A DNA stretch of 64,000 nucleotides from an uncultured Desulfobacterales bacterium (GTDB lineage Bacteria > Desulfobacterota > Desulfobacteria > Desulfobacterales > JAUVVS01), in the NCBI GenBank assembly GCA_964561845.1, contig CAZLRK010000001.1:14119-78118 (forward strand). Reading direction: 5' to 3'. The position numbers and the translations under genes are program-made. Below, piece by piece: positions 25,528 to 35,365 of the stretch. Under the pieces are notes generated by a model. That model saw only the letters and a list, made by a program, of their open reading frames with translations. It did not search any database and was not told the origin of the DNA. Each line of letters opens with the position of its first letter. Within the stretch, counting starts at the first letter, position 1.

Positions 25528-25767
25528 ATGAATAAGGAAGCTTTAACAAAACATGAAATTTATAATAAGCTGTTTGGATTTACCGAACATGATTTAGATG
25601 CTATTGTCAATTTTATCGATTTTATGAGGCATAAAAAAAAGCTTGGAACAAAAAAGGTAATCAAACTTGAAGGTATTCTTAAGGGTCATGATATAGACTT
25701 TTCCGATCTGAAGAAGTTAAAACAGCAAACCTGGAAGCACGTTGACCAGGAGTTTGCCAATGGATAG
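25528..25767 (+). CDS. putative antitoxin of a PIN-toxin pair
   Basis: 79-aa ORF with RBS GAAGGAAGG. Its stop overlaps the ATG of the downstream PIN gene by 8 nt. Confidence 0.5.
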   Translation: MNKEALTKHEIYNKLFGFTEHDLDAIVNFIDFMRHKKKLGTKKVIKLEGILKGHDIDFSDLKKLKQQTWKHVDQEFANG

Positions 25768-26149
25768 TTTTGTAACCGACACTCAGGCCCTTGTAAAATT
25801 TATGCTGGGCAAAAAGGTAATCAATAAAAAATCCCATCAGGTTTTCCACTCCACCGATAAGGGAGATGCCACTATCATCAATCCTGCCATTGTTTTGATG
25901 GAGGTTCTCTATCTATTTGAAAAGAACAGGATCGATATCAGCCTGCTTCAAACCGAAGATCTTTTCAAGAGCCAAAATTATCAGTTTGAGCCGCTGAGCT
26001 TTGAGATTCTTAAAACCGCTTCTGAGATCGACGACATCCCCGAGTTGCATGACCGGCTTATTGCTGCAACCGCCAGATATCTTGACCTGCCAATTATCAC
26101 CAATGATCCCGTGATACGGAACTCCAAATTTGTTGAAGTTCTGGTGTAA
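25760..26149 (+). CDS. PIN-domain ribonuclease toxin (VapC-like)
   Basis: An N-terminal acidic residue context (MDSFVTDTQ) and C-terminal LHDRLIAATARYLDLPIITNDP are typical of PIN toxins. Confidence 0.7.
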   Translation: MDSFVTDTQALVKFMLGKKVINKKSHQVFHSTDKGDATIINPAIVLMEVLYLFEKNRIDISLLQTEDLFKSQNYQFEPLSFEILKTASEIDDIPELHDRLIAATARYLDLPIITNDPVIRNSKFVEVLV

Positions 26150-26245: not shown

Positions 26246-26334
26246 CTGCCAATTTTAAATATAATCTGTAACATTTTAACTGTTTGAACAACAAAGCCAT
26301 CAAATTTGCCAACTGTATACATATGGAGGTAAAA

Positions 26335-28500
26335 GTGAATATCAGGCGAGTCAAAACCCCTGCAATTAACATGCTTATAATTAGCATATGCTTTTTACTC
26401 CTTTCTTTTTCCACCTACGCAGCTTCCAGGGGCATATATGTAAAAGCCAAAACATCTTCCGGCGGCATGAAGGAGATATCACTCTATTCCGGGTATCATG
26501 CATTGGTTGTGGGAGTTAGTGATTACGAAACATGGCCGGATCTGCCCAATGCCACAAAAGATGCTCATGAAATAGCACGCCTTTTAAAGAGGATGGGATT
26601 TGAGGTTAAAACGGTAACAAATCCCTCTTCACGTGAGCTTAAAAATGCTCTGAACGATTTGACATACAAATATGGCCTGGAATCAAACCGTGCTATTTTG
26701 TTTTATTATGCCGGACATGGGGAAACAGAAAAGCTGGCTGACGGTAATAAGTTGGGATACATCATTCCCAGAGACTGTCCCTTGCTAAAAGAAGATCCAC
26801 AGGGTTTTGTGAGCAAGGCCATCAGCATGAAGGATATGGAGGTCTATTCTTTGCGAATTCGGTCAAAGCATGTTTTGATGTTGTTTGATTCCTGTTTCTC
26901 CGGCTCACTTTTTTCATTGGTTAGAGCAGTGCCTGAGGATATAACTGAAAAGAGTACGCTTCCCGTGCGCCAGTACATTACAGCCGGTACCGAGGATGAA
27001 ACCGTACCTGATCGAAGTATGTTCAAACGATGTCTTATTTTAGGATTAGAAGGCGATGCAGATCTTACCAGAGACGGTTATATTACCGGAACGGAACTGG
27101 GATTGTATCTTTCAGACAAAGTTGTACAAAGTACCAGTCGTGCCCAGCACCCTCAGTATGGGAAAATTAGGACTCCGGAATTAGCAAGGGGTGATTTTGT
27201 GTTTCTCCTTGCTAGCTCCGGCGCTGTTGTGGAAGCTCCTGGCGAAGCAACCCTTTCAGTGGAATCGAATGTATCAGGCGCAAGAGTATTTGTGGATGGT
27301 CAAAAGGTGGGGACAACACAATTATCGGAAGTGGCAATTTCGGAAGGCGAACACAGAATACTGGTAGAGAAATCCGGATATGAGACATACAGGAAAACAA
27401 TCCGTGTTAAACAGGGCCGGTCCATATCGTTATACGTAGATCTTAGTATGAATACTCAACAGAATGGCAGACTTTACGTAGACACACAGCCTGCTGATGC
27501 CAATGTGAAAATACTTAACATCGGGCCTGCATTTTACCAGGGCATTGAGCTTGAAGCTGGCAGTTATCAAGTGGAAGTTTCAGCGGATGGCTATGAAGGT
27601 AAAAAATTGTGGATATCACTTGCCGCAGGAGAAGATAAGACTCTTGATATCAGTTTGAAACGAGAAACCGCATCCCGTGAAGGTAAAAAGATTACAAACA
27701 GCCTTGGGATGGAATTTTTATATATAAAACCGGGAACATTTATGATGGGAAGCCCTTCCAGTGAAAAAGGCAGGCAAAAAGATGAAAAGCAACACAGGGT
27801 AACCCTGAGCAAGGGATTTTATATACAGACCACGGAGGTGACTGTTGGGCAGTGGCGAGAGTTTATCCGGGATTCGGGATACAAGACAGAGGCAGAAACC
27901 GGTGGCGGCGCCTGGATCTGGACAGGCTCAAAATGGGAAAAGAAAAAGGGATATTATTGGGACAATCCGGGTTTTTCTCAGAGCGAAAACCATCCTGTGA
28001 CATGTGTGTCATGGAATGATGTCCGTAAATTTATAAACTGGATAAATCGTAAAGAGGGAAAATCTTATAAATTACCGACTGAAGCTGAATGGGAATATGC
28101 GTGCCGGGCAGGGAGTATGACTGCTTTTGCTAATGGTGACATATCTGAGCTCAAATGTGGTTATGATTCAAATCTGAATGCAATGGGGTGGTACTGCTAT
28201 AATGCAAATAAAAGGACACATCCGGTTGCCCAAAAGAATGCGAATGCCTGGGGGCTGTATGATATGCACGGCAATGTCTGGGAATGGTGTCAGGATAGTT
28301 GTGAATGGAAAAATGGTATAGTAACTGATACCTATCGTGACGGAATTGTTGATCCATTAAATACCAGCGGCTCTTACCGGGTGATCCGGGGCGGCAGCTG
28401 GGGCAATTACGCCAGGTACTGCCGGTCAGCGGATCGGAGCGGCTACACGCCCGGCGACAGGAGCAGCTTCCTGGGCTTCCGCCTCCTGAGGACACTTTAG
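26335..28500 (+). CDS. DGR target protein 1: signal peptide, caspase (peptidase C14) domain, two PEGA-like domains, FGE-sulfatase/C-type-lectin-fold domain with a C-terminal variable region
   Basis: Caspase His/Cys dyad contexts YYAGHGE and FDSCFSG. PEGA-like repeats (SGARVFVDGQKVG...). FGE-sulfatase motifs ([49 protein letters not shown]). GTG 26335 follows GGAGG; ATG 26323 and 26284 are alternatives. Confidence 0.85.
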   Translation: MNIRRVKTPAINMLIISICFLLLSFSTYAASRGIYVKAKTSSGGMKEISLYSGYHALVVGVSDYETWPDLPNATKDAHEIARLLKRMGFEVKTVTNPSSRELKNALNDLTYKYGLESNRAILFYYAGHGETEKLADGNKLGYIIPRDCPLLKEDPQGFVSKAISMKDMEVYSLRIRSKHVLMLFDSCFSGSLFSLVRAVPEDITEKSTLPVRQYITAGTEDETVPDRSMFKRCLILGLEGDADLTRDGYITGTELGLYLSDKVVQSTSRAQHPQYGKIRTPELARGDFVFLLASSGAVVEAPGEATLSVESNVSGARVFVDGQKVGTTQLSEVAISEGEHRILVEKSGYETYRKTIRVKQGRSISLYVDLSMNTQQNGRLYVDTQPADANVKILNIGPAFYQGIELEAGSYQVEVSADGYEGKKLWISLAAGEDKTLDISLKRETASREGKKITNSLGMEFLYIKPGTFMMGSPSSEKGRQKDEKQHRVTLSKGFYIQTTEVTVGQWREFIRDSGYKTEAETGGGAWIWTGSKWEKKKGYYWDNPGFSQSENHPVTCVSWNDVRKFINWINRKEGKSYKLPTEAEWEYACRAGSMTAFANGDISELKCGYDSNLNAMGWYCYNANKRTHPVAQKNANAWGLYDMHGNVWEWCQDSCEWKNGIVTDTYRDGIVDPLNTSGSYRVIRGGSWGNYARYCRSADRSGYTPGDRSSFLGFRLLRTL
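28369..28490 (+). repeat. DGR variable repeat VR1
   Basis: 122-nt alignment to the TR (30999-31120) with 17 mismatches by hand count. Every mismatch is at a TR adenine. Confidence 0.9.
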
Positions 28501-28550
28501 TTTTTGAGTTTTTACATTTTTACCTTTTGGACCGGGGTTTGGGGCGGGCT

Positions 28551-29011
28551 CCATAAGAGCTAATTTAACAATGAAGGCTTTTCATTCGTCATTCCGGCGA
28601 AAGCCGGAATCCAGGATTTGCCAGTACCCTGAACTGGGGCCTGCCCCGGACTTTGATCCGGGGGAGACGACAATGGATAAACAACCAGCGGTATATATTT
28701 TGGCAAGCAAACGAAATGGAACCCTCTATATAGGCGTGACATCAGATCTTGTTAAAAGGATCTGGCAACATAAAAACAATATGGTAGAAGGATTTACTAA
28801 GCGTTACGGTGTTCATCAGCTAATTTGGTATGAATTGCACGAAAATATGAAATCTGCCATTGAGAGGGAGAAACGAATGAAAGGATGGAAACGAAAGTGG
28901 AAACTGGAATTGATAGAGAGTATGAATGCCAGTTGGCAGGATTTGTATAATACGATTGTTTGACTGGATTCCGGCTTTCGCCGAAATGACTTGTTAAGTT
29001 AGCGCTTATGG
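28551..29011 (+). mobile_element. GIY-YIG gene cassette bounded by composite terminal inverted repeats
   Basis: Outer IR: CCATAAGAGCTAATTTAACAA (28551-28571) vs the reverse complement of 28991-29011, 19/21. Inner IR: GTCATTCCGGCGAAAGCCGGAATCCAG (28588-28614) vs the reverse complement of 28964-28990, 26/27. Each inner IR is itself a hairpin. Confidence 0.55.
28673..28963 (+). CDS. GIY-YIG nuclease-family protein (UPF0213-like)
   Basis: AVYILASKRNGTLYIGVTSDLVKRIWQHK...REKRMKGW is the classic small GIY-YIG protein. ATG 28673 follows GGGGAG; the upstream part of the ORF is repeat-derived. Confidence 0.85.
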   Translation: MDKQPAVYILASKRNGTLYIGVTSDLVKRIWQHKNNMVEGFTKRYGVHQLIWYELHENMKSAIEREKRMKGWKRKWKLELIESMNASWQDLYNTIV

Positions 29012-29097
29012 GGCGAAACCCCAACAGAAATTTATTAAAGAATAATGTTTTTTGCCTTAAAATGTCCTGTTTTTAATAATATAACCTTATCGTTTTT

Positions 29098-29152
29098 CCC
29101 ATATATGTGCCGCTTACAGTTGCATATATACGGTTTCAAGTATGCATATATG
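29098..29152 (+). promoter_or_regulatory. three phased CATATAT boxes immediately upstream of the HRDC-avd-RT operon
   Basis: CATATAT starts at 29100, 29123 and 29145 (spacing 23 and 22 nt). A homologous array lies at 33737-33790. Confidence 0.35.
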
Positions 29153-29154
29153 TG

Positions 29155-29667
29155 ATGCCTGTCCGAATATTCACCATACCATTTGATTCGAAAAAAGAGG
29201 TCTTCTCAGATGAAGACCTTTCACGATTTCTTCTGAACAAAAATGTAAAAAGGTTGCACCCTGAATTTTTTCAAATAAATGGCAAAGCATTCTGGACGGT
29301 TTTTATTGAGTATGAGGCCGTTGTAATTCCAGAAAAAAAGGATGCTGACTATCTTGATGAGGCACAAAGGCTGCTTATGAAACGTCTGAAAGAGTGGAGA
29401 AAAGAAAAGGCGGAAACAGTGGGGATACCGGTATTTATAATTGCAACCAATAAACAGCTTGTTGATGTTATTAAACGCGCGCCAGGGACCCTGGAAGCAC
29501 TGCGGGAAATAAACGGATTCGGCAAGAAAAAAATTGAACGGTACGGCGGTGAAATTGTTAAAATCATAACCGCCTTTTATGAAAAAAAGCCACTTCGTTT
29601 CCAAAAATCAAAAAAGTTGTCCGAAAAAAGAAGTAAAACAGATGATGCAAAAAACGAAAAGGGTTAA
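29155..29667 (+). CDS. HRDC-domain accessory protein of the DGR
   Basis: The C-terminal half (LKEWRKEKAETVGIPVFIIATNKQLVDVIKRAPGTLEALREINGFGKKKIERYG) is an HRDC fold signature. ATG 29155 is chosen; the ORF extends to 29107. Confidence 0.65.
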   Translation: MPVRIFTIPFDSKKEVFSDEDLSRFLLNKNVKRLHPEFFQINGKAFWTVFIEYEAVVIPEKKDADYLDEAQRLLMKRLKEWRKEKAETVGIPVFIIATNKQLVDVIKRAPGTLEALREINGFGKKKIERYGGEIVKIITAFYEKKPLRFQKSKKLSEKRSKTDDAKNEKG

Positions 29668-29670
29668 TAA

Positions 29671-30018
29671 ATGAGAGACGATTATCCATTATTTGTGCAT
29701 TGGTACAAAACCCTTGACTGGATATTGTCAACCATTGAAAATTTTCCGAAAAAAGCGAGATTTTCTCTGGCATCTCGACTTGCAAATGGCGCTCTGGATA
29801 CGATTGAGCTTATTATCGAGGCCATATATACCAAAAACCGTCTCCATATATTGAATAAAATAAACCTATATATGGAAAAGCAGCGTGTTTTGTTTCGCAT
29901 TGCTCATGACAGGCGATACATTTCAACAAGGCAGTATGAATATGTTTCAAAAGCAATTGATGAAGCAGGTAAAATGACAGGCGGATGGAGAAAGCAAACC
30001 CTTGAAAAGAATCAATAA
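29671..30018 (+). CDS. avd: Avd-like four-helix-bundle accessory variability determinant
   Basis: 115 aa, basic, with a helix-bundle pattern (YKTLDWILSTIENFPKKARFSLASRL...) typical of Avd / 23S-rRNA-IVS family proteins. It lies directly upstream of and overlaps the RT gene. Confidence 0.8.
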   Translation: MRDDYPLFVHWYKTLDWILSTIENFPKKARFSLASRLANGALDTIELIIEAIYTKNRLHILNKINLYMEKQRVLFRIAHDRRYISTRQYEYVSKAIDEAGKMTGGWRKQTLEKNQ

Positions 30019-30994
30019 TCTTTTTAACAGCATCACTTCATACGAAAATCTATTAATCGCTTCCCGTCTTGCGATGAAAGGAAGCGGCAAAACCGCTGCA
30101 ACTTGCAAGTATTTCTATCACTGGGAAACGGAAATTTTGCAACTTCAGACGGAATTGTTAAATGGGATTTATCGGCCTGGTTCATACCGCTATTTTATCA
30201 TTTATGATCCAAAAGAAAGAGTTATTGCTGTTGCCCCTTTTCGTGACCGGGTTGTCCATCACGCAGTGGTTCGAATCCTTACGCCGATTTATGAACGTGT
30301 ATTTATACATGATTCCTATGCCACAAGGCCTTGCAAGGGGACACATGCCGCTATTAAGCGTGCTCAAAAGTTTATTAGGCAGTGGCCCTGGTATCTTAAA
30401 GCAGATATTGAAAAATATTTTAACAATGTTGATCATGAAATTCTTCTGGGAATCATAGAGCGAAAGATAAAAGATAGGCAGCTACTTAAGCTGCTGGATA
30501 GAATCATCAGAAATACACCCACATCTGGCATAGGGATTCCCATTGGAAACCTTACCAGTCAATTCTTGGCAAATGTATATCTTGACCCTTTGGATCATAA
30601 AATAAAGGATCAAATAGGTGTTAAAGGGTATTTACGTTATATGGATGACTTTGTCTTGTTTGGATATTCAAAAAAGGAGCTGTTAGATTTAAAGTGCTCT
30701 GTTGACCACTTTTTGTCAGAACGATTGAGACTTTGCTTAAAATCCAATTCAACCTGGCTGAATCGATCAAGCCACGGTCTTAGTTTTTTGGGAATGAGAA
30801 TCTTCCCGAGGTTTATCAGAGTGAAGCCGGAAAACCGAAAGAGAAGCTTAAAACGAATGTCTAATATTGTTAAAAAATGGGAAATTGGCGAGATTGAAGA
30901 AGAGCGAATGGCCAAGAGCCTGGCCAGTATTGTTGGGCATCTTCGTTATTTCTGCCCCAAGGTAAATATAGCTTTGGAAGCAGGCGCCGAATAA
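30002..30994 (+). CDS. DGR reverse transcriptase
   Basis: RT motifs include the catalytic YMDD ([10 protein letters not shown]) and the DGR-characteristic IGNLTSQ motif. The TTG start overlaps avd. The TR begins 5 nt after its stop. Confidence 0.9.
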
Positions 30995-30998
30995 AGGT

Positions 30999-31120
30999 GG
31001 CTCTAACCGGGTGATCCGGGGCGGCAGCTGGAACAATAACGCCAGAAACTGCCGGTCAGCAAATCGGAACAACAACACGCCCGGCAACAGGAACAACAAC
31101 CTGGGCTTCCGCCTCCTGAG
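30999..31120 (+). repeat. DGR template repeat (TR)
   Basis: Adenine-rich (AAC-codon-rich) 122-nt copy of the VR1/VR2 sequences. It differs from them only at its own adenines. I counted about 35 A in the TR by hand. Confidence 0.9.
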
Positions 31121-31339
31121 CACGGGGGAACAGCAGAATCCGGTTTCGTTACGGCGCCCCAGACCGTCTACACCCCTGTCCAGGCGCTGCTTCCTGCATC
31201 CTGCCTCTATATACTTATATATGGTGCAGGATCGAAAAGAACGGATCGGTCCCGGGATTAGTAGATAAATAAATGGATAAACTTTTTTATCGAATATGCC
31301 GGGACGATCAATTATTAATCCGGCGACTAAATAGGCAAC

Positions 31340-31669: not shown

Positions 31670-33442
31670 ATGATTAAACGTATTATTTTCAGGTTATCTA
31701 CCATAGCATTTTTATTTGTTTTATTAATTCCGAGTATTTCTCTCTCCAGCCAGGATCGCCGGATTGCCCTTGTTATCGGTAATGGTGCCTACAAATTTTC
31801 TCCTCTCAGGAATCCGGTGAATGATGCCAACGATATGGCTGTTGCTCTGGAAAAGTGCAAATTCAATGTAGTGAAAATAACCGATGCCAATAGAGGTGAA
31901 ATGCGCAAAGCAATCAGGAAATTTGGGAATAAACTTATGAGAGGGGGAATAGGTTTGTTCTATTATGCGGGCCACGGGATTCAAGTTAATGGTGAAAATT
32001 ATCTGGTTCCTGTTGGGGCTGAAGTTTTCGCTGAAGATGAGGTTGAGGATGAGTGTCTGAAGGTATCATCTGTATTAAGAAAAATGGAAACAGCAAATAA
32101 CAGCCTTAACATAATAATACTTGACGCCTGCAGAGATAATCCTTTTGGGCGTAGTTTCAGGTCCGGTAAGAGTGGTTTAGCAAAAATGGATGCCCCGACC
32201 GGCTCGATTCTGGCCTATGCCACAGCCCCTGGATCAGTTGCCGCTGATGGTACAGATAGAAATGGCCTGTATACGTCCAAGCTTTTAAAGCATATGACGA
32301 CACAGGGGATAACAATAGAAAATTTATTCAAGCGGGTACGAGTTGATGTAATGAATGCTTCAGGCAAAAGACAGGTTCCCTGGGAATCATCGTCTCTTGC
32401 GGGAAATTTCTATTTCTATTCAAAAAGAGGAATTACAATTGCGGAAAGTACAGCATTAAAATCGCAACCGGTTAAAGAGACGCCAGAGATTGAGGAAAAA
32501 ACCAAAGATGAGCTTGAACTTGCACTTTTAAAAATAAAAAAGTTGAAAGAAGCACAGCAAAAGGAAAAAGAGGCAAAGGGACGAAAGTTTAAAAATCTTC
32601 TTGCTGATTTGAAAAAATACCAAACTATTGAGAAATCAGATTTGGATGATGAAACAAAATATTCTGCCTGGAAGGCAATGAAAAGAAAATATCCTAAATG
32701 GAGTTCAGGTATAGGATCAGGCGATTCTACGGGCATGGTATATCGTGCACTTGAAGAAGACAATGATGGTACGTATGCAGAAATAGCCAAGGCCTCGGGT
32801 TTTGAGTTGTCAAAGACAAATTCAATTGGGATGGAGTTTGTTTATATAAAACCAGGTAGCTTCATGATGGGAAGCCCTTCCAATGAATCCGGGAGGGATG
32901 ATGACGAGGTGCAACACCGCGTGTCCATAACAAAGAGTTTTTACATACAAACAACGGAGGTGACCCAAGGGCAGTGGAAAGCGGTAATGGGCAGCAATCC
33001 ATCTCATTTTAAAAATTGTGGTGATGACTGTCCTGTGGAAAATGTTTCCTGGAATGATGTTAAAGAATTTATTCACAAGCTGAACCAGCGGGAAGGCAGC
33101 GGTACTTACAGGCTGCCTTCAGAGGCCGAATGGGAATATGCTGCCAGGGCAGGAACGGATACGCCTTTTTCCTTTGGTCGATGTTTATCCACTGATCAGG
33201 CCAATTATCATGGCAATTATCCATTATCAGGATGCGCTAAAGGAAAGTATAGGAATAGTACGATCCGTGTAGCCAGTTTTTCTCCCAACGCCTGGGGCTT
33301 GTATGATATGCATGGTAATGTCTATGAGTGGTGCCAGGACTGGTATGCAAAGTATTATTCCAGTTCAGCAACCGATCCCACCGGCCCATCCAGCGGCTCT
33401 TACCGGGTGATCCGGGGCGGCAGCTGGTACAATTACGCCTGA
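31670..33442 (+). CDS. DGR target protein 2: signal peptide, caspase domain, coiled-coil linker, FGE-sulfatase/CLec domain. It is truncated by a TGA inside its variable repeat.
   Basis: Caspase dyad contexts YYAGHGI and LDACRDN. FGE motifs ([39 protein letters not shown]). After TGA 33440-33442 the same frame continues for 27 codons (YCRSAVRNFFTPGDRSSFLGFRLLRTL) to TAG 33524-33526, matching the C-terminus of target 1. Confidence 0.85.
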   Translation: MIKRIIFRLSTIAFLFVLLIPSISLSSQDRRIALVIGNGAYKFSPLRNPVNDANDMAVALEKCKFNVVKITDANRGEMRKAIRKFGNKLMRGGIGLFYYAGHGIQVNGENYLVPVGAEVFAEDEVEDECLKVSSVLRKMETANNSLNIIILDACRDNPFGRSFRSGKSGLAKMDAPTGSILAYATAPGSVAADGTDRNGLYTSKLLKHMTTQGITIENLFKRVRVDVMNASGKRQVPWESSSLAGNFYFYSKRGITIAESTALKSQPVKETPEIEEKTKDELELALLKIKKLKEAQQKEKEAKGRKFKNLLADLKKYQTIEKSDLDDETKYSAWKAMKRKYPKWSSGIGSGDSTGMVYRALEEDNDGTYAEIAKASGFELSKTNSIGMEFVYIKPGSFMMGSPSNESGRDDDEVQHRVSITKSFYIQTTEVTQGQWKAVMGSNPSHFKNCGDDCPVENVSWNDVKEFIHKLNQREGSGTYRLPSEAEWEYAARAGTDTPFSFGRCLSTDQANYHGNYPLSGCAKGKYRNSTIRVASFSPNAWGLYDMHGNVYEWCQDWYAKYYSSSATDPTGPSSGSYRVIRGGSWYNYA

Positions 33443-33516
33443 TACTGCCGGTCAGCAGTTCGGAACTTCTTCACGCCCGGCGACAGGAGCAGCTTCCTGG
33501 GCTTCCGCCTCCTGAG
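33395..33516 (+). repeat. DGR variable repeat VR2
   Basis: 122-nt alignment to the TR with 16 mismatches by hand count, all at TR adenines. The following 57 nt (to 33573) are identical to the sequence after VR1. Confidence 0.9.
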
Positions 33517-33736
33517 GACACTTTAGTTTTTGAGTTTTTACATTTTTACCTTTTGGACCGGGGTTTGGGGCGGCTTCCGGCCCGGAGGGCTCTACCACGG
33601 CGGGAGCCCCAACGGAAATTATTTAAAAGTCAATTAAAATATTGATAAATTTACTTGTAAATATGCTTTTTTAACTAAAGTTGGTGATATTTGATAAAAA
33701 TATACCCATTTTAATAAATATTTTTTACTCATCCAC

Positions 33737-33889: not shown

Positions 33890-34663
33890 ATGAGATTTAA
33901 AATTTTTATTTTAATAGTGCTAATGCTATCCGTACCTTTATCCTATGGTCAGGATAATAATGTGTTTGAAAAAGCGGATGATATGTTTGAAGAAATGGAC
34001 TATCAAAATCTTACTTTAAGATTTTTCAATGCTGTTAATGGAAATGGAATACCAGGAGCTGAGGTTGAAATAGAAGGAATAGGCGCAGGCGAAACCGATG
34101 ATGAGGGTAAGCTTTTGTTTCCTGTCCCTGAAGACGGAATTTACGATGTATATTTTAGAAAAAAGGGTTATATTGACTCGGATTTCAAGATAAAAATTAT
34201 GGTCGGCACAATATTTTTCAACAGGTTTTCAGTATCACCAGAGATAGATCTAAAGTATGTCAGGATAGTTCTTGATTGGGATAGAAGACCTTCAGATCTT
34301 GATGCTCACCTTGTAAAGGAAGGGGGTTATCATATATCATATAGAAACATGCATACAGTATCAGATGGAAGCGCTAAACTTGACAGGGACGATATGGATG
34401 GCTTTGGGCCGGAGACAATTACCATAAAAAGAGTGGACATAAACTCAAATTACAGATTCTTTGTCCATGATTATTCAAATCAGTCAAACCGTTTAAATCT
34501 GCAACTTTCAAAATCAAAGGCCTGCATTAAAGTTTACGGCGACGGCAAACTTCTCCAGTTGTTTAATGTTCCGCAGAATGAAAGAGGCATAGTCTGGGAA
34601 GTATTCCGCCTGGAAAAGGGCAGGATTGTTGAAGTCAATAGAATATCAAAAAAAATGATGTAG
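33890..34663 (+). CDS. secreted hypothetical protein (signal peptide; beta-rich)
   Basis: 257 aa. N-terminal signal-like MRFKIFILIVLMLSVPLSYGQ and RBS GGAGG. The C-terminal half (LDWDRRPSDLDAHL...DDMDGFGPETI) is reminiscent of a YfaP/DUF2135-type domain (uncertain). Confidence 0.55.
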   Translation: MRFKIFILIVLMLSVPLSYGQDNNVFEKADDMFEEMDYQNLTLRFFNAVNGNGIPGAEVEIEGIGAGETDDEGKLLFPVPEDGIYDVYFRKKGYIDSDFKIKIMVGTIFFNRFSVSPEIDLKYVRIVLDWDRRPSDLDAHLVKEGGYHISYRNMHTVSDGSAKLDRDDMDGFGPETITIKRVDINSNYRFFVHDYSNQSNRLNLQLSKSKACIKVYGDGKLLQLFNVPQNERGIVWEVFRLEKGRIVEVNRISKKMM

Positions 34664-34787: not shown

Positions 34788-34994
34788 ATGCAAATTGTAA
34801 CAGTATCGCCAAAATATCAAGTAGTAATACCAAAAAAGGTTAGAGATGTATTGCATCTTCGGCCCGGACAAAAAATGCAGGTTGTAGAATATGATGGACG
34901 GATCGAGCTTATCCCGGAGCGAGATATTAAAGAACTTCGCGGATTCCTAAAAGGTATAAACACAGAGTTCGAACGCGAGGAAGATAGAACATGA
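34788..34994 (+). CDS. AbrB/MazE/SpoVT-family antitoxin (VapB-like)
   Basis: 68 aa. MQIVTVSPKYQVVIPKKVRDVLHLRPGQKM is a swapped-hairpin AbrB-type DNA-binding motif. It overlaps the PIN gene by 4 nt (ATGA). Confidence 0.8.
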   Translation: MQIVTVSPKYQVVIPKKVRDVLHLRPGQKMQVVEYDGRIELIPERDIKELRGFLKGINTEFEREEDRT

Positions 34995-35365
34995 ATATTG
35001 TCGATTCTTCCGGTTGGCTTGCTTATTTTGCGGATGAGCCGAATGCTAAAAACTTTATAACCCCTTTAAATGATACGGCTTCACTTATTATTCCATCTGT
35101 AACGATATATGAGGTTTTCAAGGTAGTTCTTCGAGAGTCAAGTGAGAATAATGCGTTACAAGCAGCCGGTGCTATGCATAAAGGAACGGTTGTGGATCTA
35201 ACAGCTTCGTTGGCGATTGCTGCCTCAAAAATAAGTTTGGAGTATAATCCTCCAATGGCTGACAGTTTTATTCTCGCAACAGCAAAGGAATTCGATGCCA
35301 CCATTTGGATTCAAGATGCAGATTTTAAAAATATAGGCGGGGTAAAGTATTTCGCCAAGAAATAA
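34991..35365 (+). CDS. PIN-domain toxin (VapC-like)
   Basis: 124 aa. It has an N-terminal IVDSSGW acidic site and C-terminal ADSFILATAKEFDATIWIQDADF. Confidence 0.8.
   Translation: MNIVDSSGWLAYFADEPNAKNFITPLNDTASLIIPSVTIYEVFKVVLRESSENNALQAAGAMHKGTVVDLTASLAIAASKISLEYNPPMADSFILATAKEFDATIWIQDADFKNIGGVKYFAKK

Follow-up and report, generated by a model that had tools for sequence, protein, structure and literature searches.

The mechanistic prototype of diversity-generating retroelements (DGRs) is that of Bordetella phage BPP-1, in which the reverse transcriptase (RT) bRT, the accessory protein bAvd and a template repeat (TR) act on the variable repeat (VR) of Mtd. A second well-described system, the DGR of Treponema denticola, serves multiple targets per TR; its TRs contain stop-capable lysine codons, and truncated, 'suspicious' targets have been listed there with their origin left untraced (PMC4891356). 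TR codon usage has been reported to prevent nonsense codons (bioRxiv 10.1101/2023.09.22.558884; bioRxiv 10.1101/2024.11.15.621889; PMC10686091), and both TRs and RTs have been described as biased against nonsense outcomes (bioRxiv 10.1101/2023.09.22.558884; PMC12875486; bioRxiv 10.1101/2024.11.15.621889). We analysed a stretch of 64,000 nucleotides from an uncultured Desulfobacterales bacterium (contig CAZLRK010000001.1, positions 14,119 to 78,118; hereafter the window), which carries a standard, active, chromosomal DGR between 26.3 and 33.5 kb, consisting of an RT, bAvd, an HRDC gene, one TR and two target genes. One of these targets ends prematurely at an opal codon inside its own VR. The locus is a clean natural counter-example to the standard view that DGR templates are built to avoid nonsense, as one synonymous AGG-to-AGA template difference lets the element knock out its own target.

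We consider it probable that the active DGR wrote the opal stop into its own target, as an intrinsic and tolerated by-product of an AGA codon in the TR. The DGR diversifies the FGE-type C-type-lectin (CLec) domains at the C-termini of two secreted proteins with caspase domains. According to our explanation, the RT, which misincorporates specifically at adenines, would have changed the first A of AGA to T while the third A was copied faithfully, and retrohoming would then have placed the stop in the VR of the second target (VR2). Target 2 thereby loses its last 28 residues, and its lectin domain would be disabled; the population tolerates the null allele, with intact VR2 alleles persisting elsewhere.

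The stop codon in VR2

The whole window contains only one TR (30999..31120; 122 bases, 35 of them adenines) and two VRs, VR1 (28369..28490) in target 1 and VR2 (33395..33516) in target 2, all on the forward (+) strand, as are the other DGR features located below. VR1 differs from the TR by 17 mismatches and VR2 by 16 substitutions; 33/33 fall on TR adenines and none on other bases within 30999-31120, an outcome with a chance probability of ~0.287^33, or ~1e-18, when 35/122 bases are adenine. Target 2 is present in its truncated, null state (31670..33442; 590 aa), with a signal peptide, a caspase domain and a cut FGE/CLec domain. Its TGA stop (33440..33442) lies inside VR2, and the TR/VR alignment bears out the coordinates assigned to it in an earlier, sequence-only reading of this DNA. 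The corresponding TR codon (31044..31046) is AGA (Arg) and VR1 has AGG (28414-28416), so that the stop is a single A-to-T change at TR adenine 31044, again as that reading had it. Past the TGA follow 27 further sense codons in the same frame (YCRSAVRNFFTPGDRSSFLGFRLLRTL), an orphaned in-frame tail (33443..33526) ending in TAG (33524-33526). This tail aligns to the tail of target 1 (YCRSADRSGYTPGDRSSFLGFRLLRTL), with 23/27 residues identical, which confirms the frame assignment. The proposal that TR adenines sit mostly in protected codons also holds (26/35 are in AAY), and AGA is an unprotected codon, the only one in this TR that adenine-only mutagenesis can turn into a stop. The sequence-only reading was wrong, however, to count CAA and GAA among the unprotected codons: their first base is not adenine, and they cannot become stops by adenine mutagenesis.

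The TGA in VR2 is real and no artefact. An identical 590-aa product is encoded on 7 further contigs (JGI 3300009374, 3300009375, 3300009405 and 3300009127; ENA assemblies of SAMN10231904 and SAMN10231903), which speaks against the assembly or consensus error at 33440 that the sequence-only reading had suggested excluding. One paper assigns SAMN10231904 to a marine oxygen-deficient water column (PMC12220078); the JGI sample numbers turned up in no paper. A sequencing, consensus or assembly error, for instance one that joined different VR haplotypes, or VR1 and VR2, into a chimera, would not be surprising where the VRs are hypervariable and the VR1 and VR2 flanks identical, and signs of cross-talk exist in the form of five substitutions at the end of the window's VR1 that also occur in VR2 and of a mosaic VR2 in assembly L004. 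An artefact is nevertheless hardly credible as the source of the stop: the same TGA-bearing VR2 was recovered from different samples and through different pipelines (JGI, ENA), the T at the stop position is absent from every VR1 allele, and the TGA lies only 49 nt from VR2-unique sequence, inside one short read.

The open and conserved frame past the TGA could also indicate that the codon is recoded (genetic code 4 or 25, selenocysteine or efficient readthrough) and that translation continues to the full-length protein. Recent copying from the TR by the DGR fully accounts for the open tail, and TGA is a normal stop in the source genome, where it terminates 9/41 long open reading frames (ORFs) of the window, three of them with Pfam domains reaching the protein C-terminus. 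Long ORFs are not broken up by in-frame TGAs, and the codon specifies Arg, Ser or Trp in other alleles, with no conserved Cys or Sec. An Rfam search at gathering thresholds and a tRNA scan of the window returned no family (SECIS included) and no tRNA. Recoding is on these grounds very improbable.

Truncation removes the last 28 residues from target 2 and leaves the signal peptide and the caspase domain in place; the remaining FGE domain covers profile positions 4-224 of 255 (Pfam). Orthologues of full length have 615-618 aa, and the C-terminus of each reads ...LGFRxxRxx. Among 41 aligned homologues, three residues past the stop never vary (R598, G611, R613) and three more there hardly do (R594, A596, P603; full-length numbering). 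By sequence, the nearest solved structure is that of TvpA (2Y3C; E = 8.9e-36), a variable protein of a DGR, and the alignment with it extends as far as the terminal GFRL. In an AlphaFold (AF2) model of the intact allele (mean pLDDT 82), strands occupy 598-601 and about 610-616. With the tail, target 2 thus loses half of its variable surface and the conserved strands that close the lectin fold. Because the invariant C-terminal residues and these strands are gone, the truncated ligand-binding domain is, judging from homology and the model, most likely non-functional, and the allele would be a null or sensor-less one.

Null and intact alleles in one population

Fifteen assemblies of the same population (L001-L015), all of them consensus contigs, were aligned to the window without gaps over 76,024 bases. 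They contain 168 differences inside the two VRs (244 nt) and 1 in the ~75.8 kb outside them (28736, in L004). Of the assemblies, 11 cover the TR sufficiently for comparison; their TR sequences do not differ, and the RT sequence is the same in 11 contigs. VR1 occurs as 6 distinct alleles in 7 assemblies and VR2 as 5 distinct alleles in 10 assemblies (window counted). Because the VRs vary while the TR never does, the DGR is active and its diversification ongoing. All VR differences but one are at TR-adenine positions. The exception, in VR1 of L014 (L014:3450-3571), is a G-to-T change at TR 31083 that turns GGC into TGC (Gly to Cys) and represents either a rare non-adenine misincorporation or an ordinary mutation.

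In a background that is otherwise clonal, target 2 occurs in both null and intact form. The major null form, with TGA at 33440-33442, is found in the window, L001, L002, L003 and L005; L006 has the null form with one further change at 33495 and L004 with 8 changes, all 3' of the stop, and both keep the TGA. Intact VR2 alleles encode proteins of 618 aa, namely P0002 (codon AGA; L007, L015) and P0004 (codon TGG; L014). Full-length VR2 alleles come from at least 3 samples and lie on 4 contigs, P0002 on 3 and P0004 on 1; the 10-kb background of the null and the intact alleles is otherwise identical. The coexistence of codon variants that the sequence-only reading had suggested looking for is therefore borne out for AGA and TGG beside TGA, as seen between assemblies and not within reads. 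The knock-out is the assembled sequence in most, not all, assemblies of one wild population of the marine low-oxygen water column. At the VR1 codon that matches the stop site, AGG occurs in 2/6 alleles and AGT in 4/6, and the first A is unchanged in all. A search for further VR2 alleles with an exact 40-nt anchor 5' of VR2 gave 0 matches in a scanned metagenome collection that is evidently without these samples.

The distribution of differences also bears on the origin of the T itself. A spontaneous A-to-T mutation unrelated to the DGR would leave the same trace, and a single-base change permits no formal attribution to a mechanism. Yet the contrast between the near-invariant background and the VRs is extreme, the site is a TR adenine, A-to-T is the commonest DGR substitution at this locus, and 15 other adenine-specific substitutions stand in the same VR. 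We infer that the T at 33440 was written by the DGR, and regard a spontaneous mutation as very unlikely.

Several points weigh against our explanation. The null VR2 is identical in five assemblies (window included), while VR1 is different in nearly all; re-homing of VR2 at the frequency of VR1 should have left more variants derived from the null allele. The two that exist are L006, with its one base change, and L004, whose 8 changes are interleaved with 6 shared substitutions. The alleles are compatible with either direction of change, intact to null or null to intact. They come from consensus assemblies, and some of those from JGI and ENA may go back to shared samples. A spontaneous A-to-T change at this one base keeps a formal place beside the DGR.

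We considered L004 as a partial re-homing of the null allele and rejected it as clean evidence, given the 6 kept substitutions among the changed positions; its VR2 (L004:4900-5021, equivalent to window 33392-33516) is a mosaic, unlike the product of a single continuous 3' re-homing tract. The intact alleles of L007 and L014 share scattered substitutions (CT at 33428/29, T at 33482, GA at 33494/95), and the intact alleles have no clear flanking substitution pattern in common with the null haplotype. Patchy conversion or convergent selection could account for these mosaic and shared VR2 substitutions. At its last five substituted positions (28456-28469; GAC, AGC, AGC, TTC) the window's VR1 agrees with the major null VR2 (33482-33495), as none of the other five VR1 alleles does (chance ~3e-4), which suggests gene conversion between VR1 and VR2 or cross-talk in assembly across the 3' flank that they share. 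One VR1 allele is common to L003 and L015, which have a null and an intact VR2, respectively, and one VR2 allele is common to L007 and L015, which differ in VR1; either the VRs reassort or diversify independently, or assemblers cannot phase sites 5 kb apart. Finally, a 220-aa fragment (P0003) on an ENA contig of 789 nt matches target 2 to the start of the VR except for one Y-to-N change, and its VR part differs at non-adenine positions (LPRGVRSANRYNDAPGFRSSFIGVRLVRTP). The fragment could be a recombinant, or else the assembly joined target 2 to a paralogue that depends on a different TR.

The predominance of the null form raises the possibility that target 2 is heading to permanent loss, the stop being the first lesion of a pseudogene and beyond repair. 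Null is the consensus in most assemblies and shows far less turnover than VR1, and the second, intact paralogous target could cover the function. There is, however, no other decay: in no assembly does target 2 differ outside VR2, and VR2 itself has no non-adenine substitutions; the orphaned tail is still in frame and intact, and intact alleles persist in at least 3 samples. We therefore find permanent loss doubtful. Later homing could in principle repair the null allele by overwriting the stop, since TR and RT are undamaged and so is the flank 3' of VR2. In engineered DGRs, retrohoming restores defective target or reporter genes (PMC3240598; PMC12875486).

The template codon in related loci

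A custom TR/VR finder was run on 80 related loci from reference genomes and, with the window excluded, yielded 58 TR/VR pairs of the FGE type with a sound frame, from 45 loci. The TR codon at the corresponding position (A/P-X-N-C-R-S-A) is AGG in 12 TRs and CGN in two or three, and the VRs of these TRs show TGG (Trp) 6 times and GGG 3 times. The same first-position A-to-T change that gives Trp, a common and harmless outcome, from the AGG of the relatives thus gives a stop from the synonymous AGA at this locus. AGA is found in the window and in its closest relative (RT 82% identical; L096/L097) and AGG in the next relatives (RT 74% and 69% identical). Since L096/L097 also have AGA, the stop-capable codon is older than this population. 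In that relative (L096:7996-8120, L097:4567-4691; JGI 3300083231, 3300082323) the TR has AGA and the VR AGG, and the DGR has a single target and is located 3' of integrase and resolvase genes. Part of what the sequence-only reading had suggested looking for in other DGRs was found, with some stop-capable codon, mostly AAA, in 11/45 (24%) of the other related TRs; the other part was not, with internal stops in 0/58 related VRs. With about one in four related templates stop-capable, self-inflicted null alleles emerge as a real, usually purged, cost of DGRs.

The expected frequency of the outcome can be estimated from the local substitution spectrum, in which A is kept at 0.50-0.53 and changed to T at 0.27-0.29, to G at 0.16 and to C at 0.02-0.07. 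The naive probability of AGA to TGA is then ~0.14 per homing event covering the codon. For BPP-1, the naive one-adenine value for AAG to TAG is ~7%, and only ~1% of AAA/AAG to stop was measured (PMC12875486). As a naive expectation, the stop would arise in a few percent to about 15% of the homing events that cover the codon, and a simple by-product is consistent with the single independent nonsense event in a set of roughly nine independent alleles.

The sequence-only reading had gone further and suggested a DGR-driven ON/OFF state. The coexistence of null and intact alleles agrees with this idea, while the near-uniform null allele and the lack of clean re-homing tracts do not. In its strongest form, AGA would be a maintained 'off-switch' in the template, kept as a stochastic OFF/ON switch of target 2 for a bet-hedging benefit, and the secreted caspase-lectin sensor would undergo programmed, reversible phase variation beside its diversification. 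In favour of such a switch stand the two allele states in an otherwise identical background, the persistence of the vulnerable codon over some evolutionary distance, as it is also kept in the closest relative (RT 82% identical), the stop-capable codons in 11/45 other related TRs, and the intact TR, RT and VR2 flank, which make rewriting mechanistically possible. The alleles of the assemblies give no sign of repeated switching, though: the TGA alleles are all related by descent and nearly uniform, which points to one event, and the unusual uniformity of the null allele resembles a persisting knock-out haplotype more than rapid flipping. More stops would be expected in the 58 VRs of the 45 related loci if switching were in use. 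AGG to AGA is synonymous, and the TR itself does not serve as a translated target, so that drift is a sufficient explanation for the change; the published bias of TRs and RTs against nonsense outcomes speaks against a dedicated switch as well. We regard a maintained switch as unlikely. Reversible, adaptive ON/OFF switching by the DGR is plausible but unproven, and any adaptive or phenotypic role of the null allele is hypothetical; the alleles fit a null haplotype that is tolerated, or even favoured, and persists.

With an intact VR1 that differs in almost every assembly and a null, near-frozen VR2 in one clonal background, the locus offers a way to separate homing rate from selection in metagenomic read data. 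A null VR2 would be invisible to selection, and its frozen consensus beside a changing VR1 may mean that selection drives the consensus turnover of VR1. The null VR2 might then be a natural neutral control for VR1 in the same cells, and VR turnover in nature would be driven by protein-level selection and not by homing rate.

The surrounding locus and known systems

Target gene 1 (26284..28500) encodes a signal peptide, a caspase domain (Peptidase_C14), PEGA and an FGE-sulfatase/C-type-lectin domain and is intact, ending in TAG; its FGE-sulfatase domain is complete (Pfam 3.3e-56, profile positions 4-255 of 255), and gene calls in other assemblies start at 26323 or 26335. The HRDC-domain accessory protein (29107..29667; Pfam HRDC 7.2e-20) is followed by the accessory variability determinant bAvd (29671..30018; Pfam bAvd 1.8e-18), which overlaps the start of the RT. 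The RT (30002..30994; 330 aa; Pfam RVT_1 1.7e-19) carries IGNLTSQ and YMDD motifs, and in its alignment G182 N183 L184 T185 S186 Q187 and M214 D215 D216 are invariant; 6290 RT homologues were found at E <= 1e-30, and a scan of genome contigs with an RT alignment had its best match at 53% identity, the source genome not being among those recovered. The closest relatives (L096-L101) have the same order of target, HRDC, bAvd, RT and TR, with the second target present or not. Named homologues come mostly from Desulfobacterales (Desulfobacteraceae, Ca. Magnetomoraceae) and other multicellular or filamentous bacteria. The DGR is surrounded by chromosomal genes of housekeeping and redox functions (xanthine-dehydrogenase-like proteins, hybrid-cluster protein, HrpA, Crp).

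VR1 and VR2 are copies of a 189-nt repeat family with 94% identity, and their shared 3' flank departs from the TR at 31121. The VR1 3' flank (28491..28552) is the same as that of VR2 and shows a divergence from the TR like that at the initiation of mutagenic homing (IMH) site. The VR2 3' flank (33517..33612) matches the VR1 flank up to 33578 and then runs into a GC-rich inverted repeat (GGGGTTTGGGGC...GCCCCAAC), ~40 nt 3' of VR2. From its sequence, this repeat is a possible target-recognition hairpin or terminator; the predicted folds 3' of the two VRs were no better than those of shuffled sequences (z = -0.62 and -0.19).

A GIY-YIG ORF (28571-28963, within 28537..29025 on the + strand) lies between two nested inverted repeats (28537-28571/28991-29025, and 28588-28614/28964-28990 with 96% complementarity). 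It occupies the loop of a hairpin (GGGGTTTGGGGCGG...CCCCAAC) 3' of VR1, the VR2 counterpart of which (33560-33612) is uninterrupted, and it is absent from the closest relative loci (L096-L099, L101). By its arrangement, it looks like a small mobile cassette inserted directly after VR1. Toxin-antitoxin-like genes stand on both sides of the DGR (25742-26149 and 34788-35365), with a PIN-domain ORF 5' of target 1 and a MazE/AbrB-type antitoxin and a PIN ORF 3' of target 2. An ORF of 257 aa between target 2 and the downstream antitoxin genes (33890-34663) has no Pfam match.

As in BPP-1, substitutions occur only at template adenines, the VR forms the C-terminus of a protein with a C-type-lectin fold, and the VRs diverge from the TR at the 3' end in an IMH-like manner. 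Unlike that phage element, the present DGR is chromosomal, with two targets and an HRDC accessory gene; a caspase domain is joined to its lectin domain, which belongs to the FGE-sulfatase type, no significant hairpin is predicted directly 3' of the VRs, and its TR contains a stop-capable AGA whose stop is present in one natural VR. The T. denticola DGR with TvpA resembles it in the FGE-type CLec variable protein and in the multiple targets served by one TR. Its targets are without a caspase domain, and, unlike the truncations listed there, the stop in VR2 is traced to a specific adenine and coexists with intact alleles in a clonal background.

The DGRs of multicellular and filamentous bacteria that diversify putative antigen sensors of conflict systems likewise have targets with CLec domains fused to caspase-type peptidases (Dore et al., bioRxiv 10.1101/2023.09.22.558884). 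Bacteria of these kinds are also the hosts of homologues of the present RT (Ca. Magnetomorum/Magnetomoraceae, Desulfonema, Nostoc, Scytonema and Thiomargarita). Unlike those systems, both targets have N-terminal signal peptides, one TR codon permits nonsense, and the nonsense outcome is present in nature. A natural, adenine-derived VR stop that segregates with intact alleles was not found described in the accessible papers, a body of literature that leaves subscription journals mostly outside.

Phase-variable (contingency) loci based on slipped-strand repeats or invertons offer the remaining comparison. There, as here, a dedicated hypermutation mechanism leaves a single population with both functional and null alleles of a protein that is secreted or exposed on the surface; the ON and OFF alleles of target 2 stand between the same flanks, with TGA in the window and 7 contigs and AGA or TGG on 4. 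The mechanism differs, being adenine-directed retrohoming, and OFF is one of very many outcomes instead of one of two. The known DGR mechanism is unchanged by these findings: the element is an ordinary DGR, and its nonsense polymorphism is a modest new natural observation, predictable from that mechanism.

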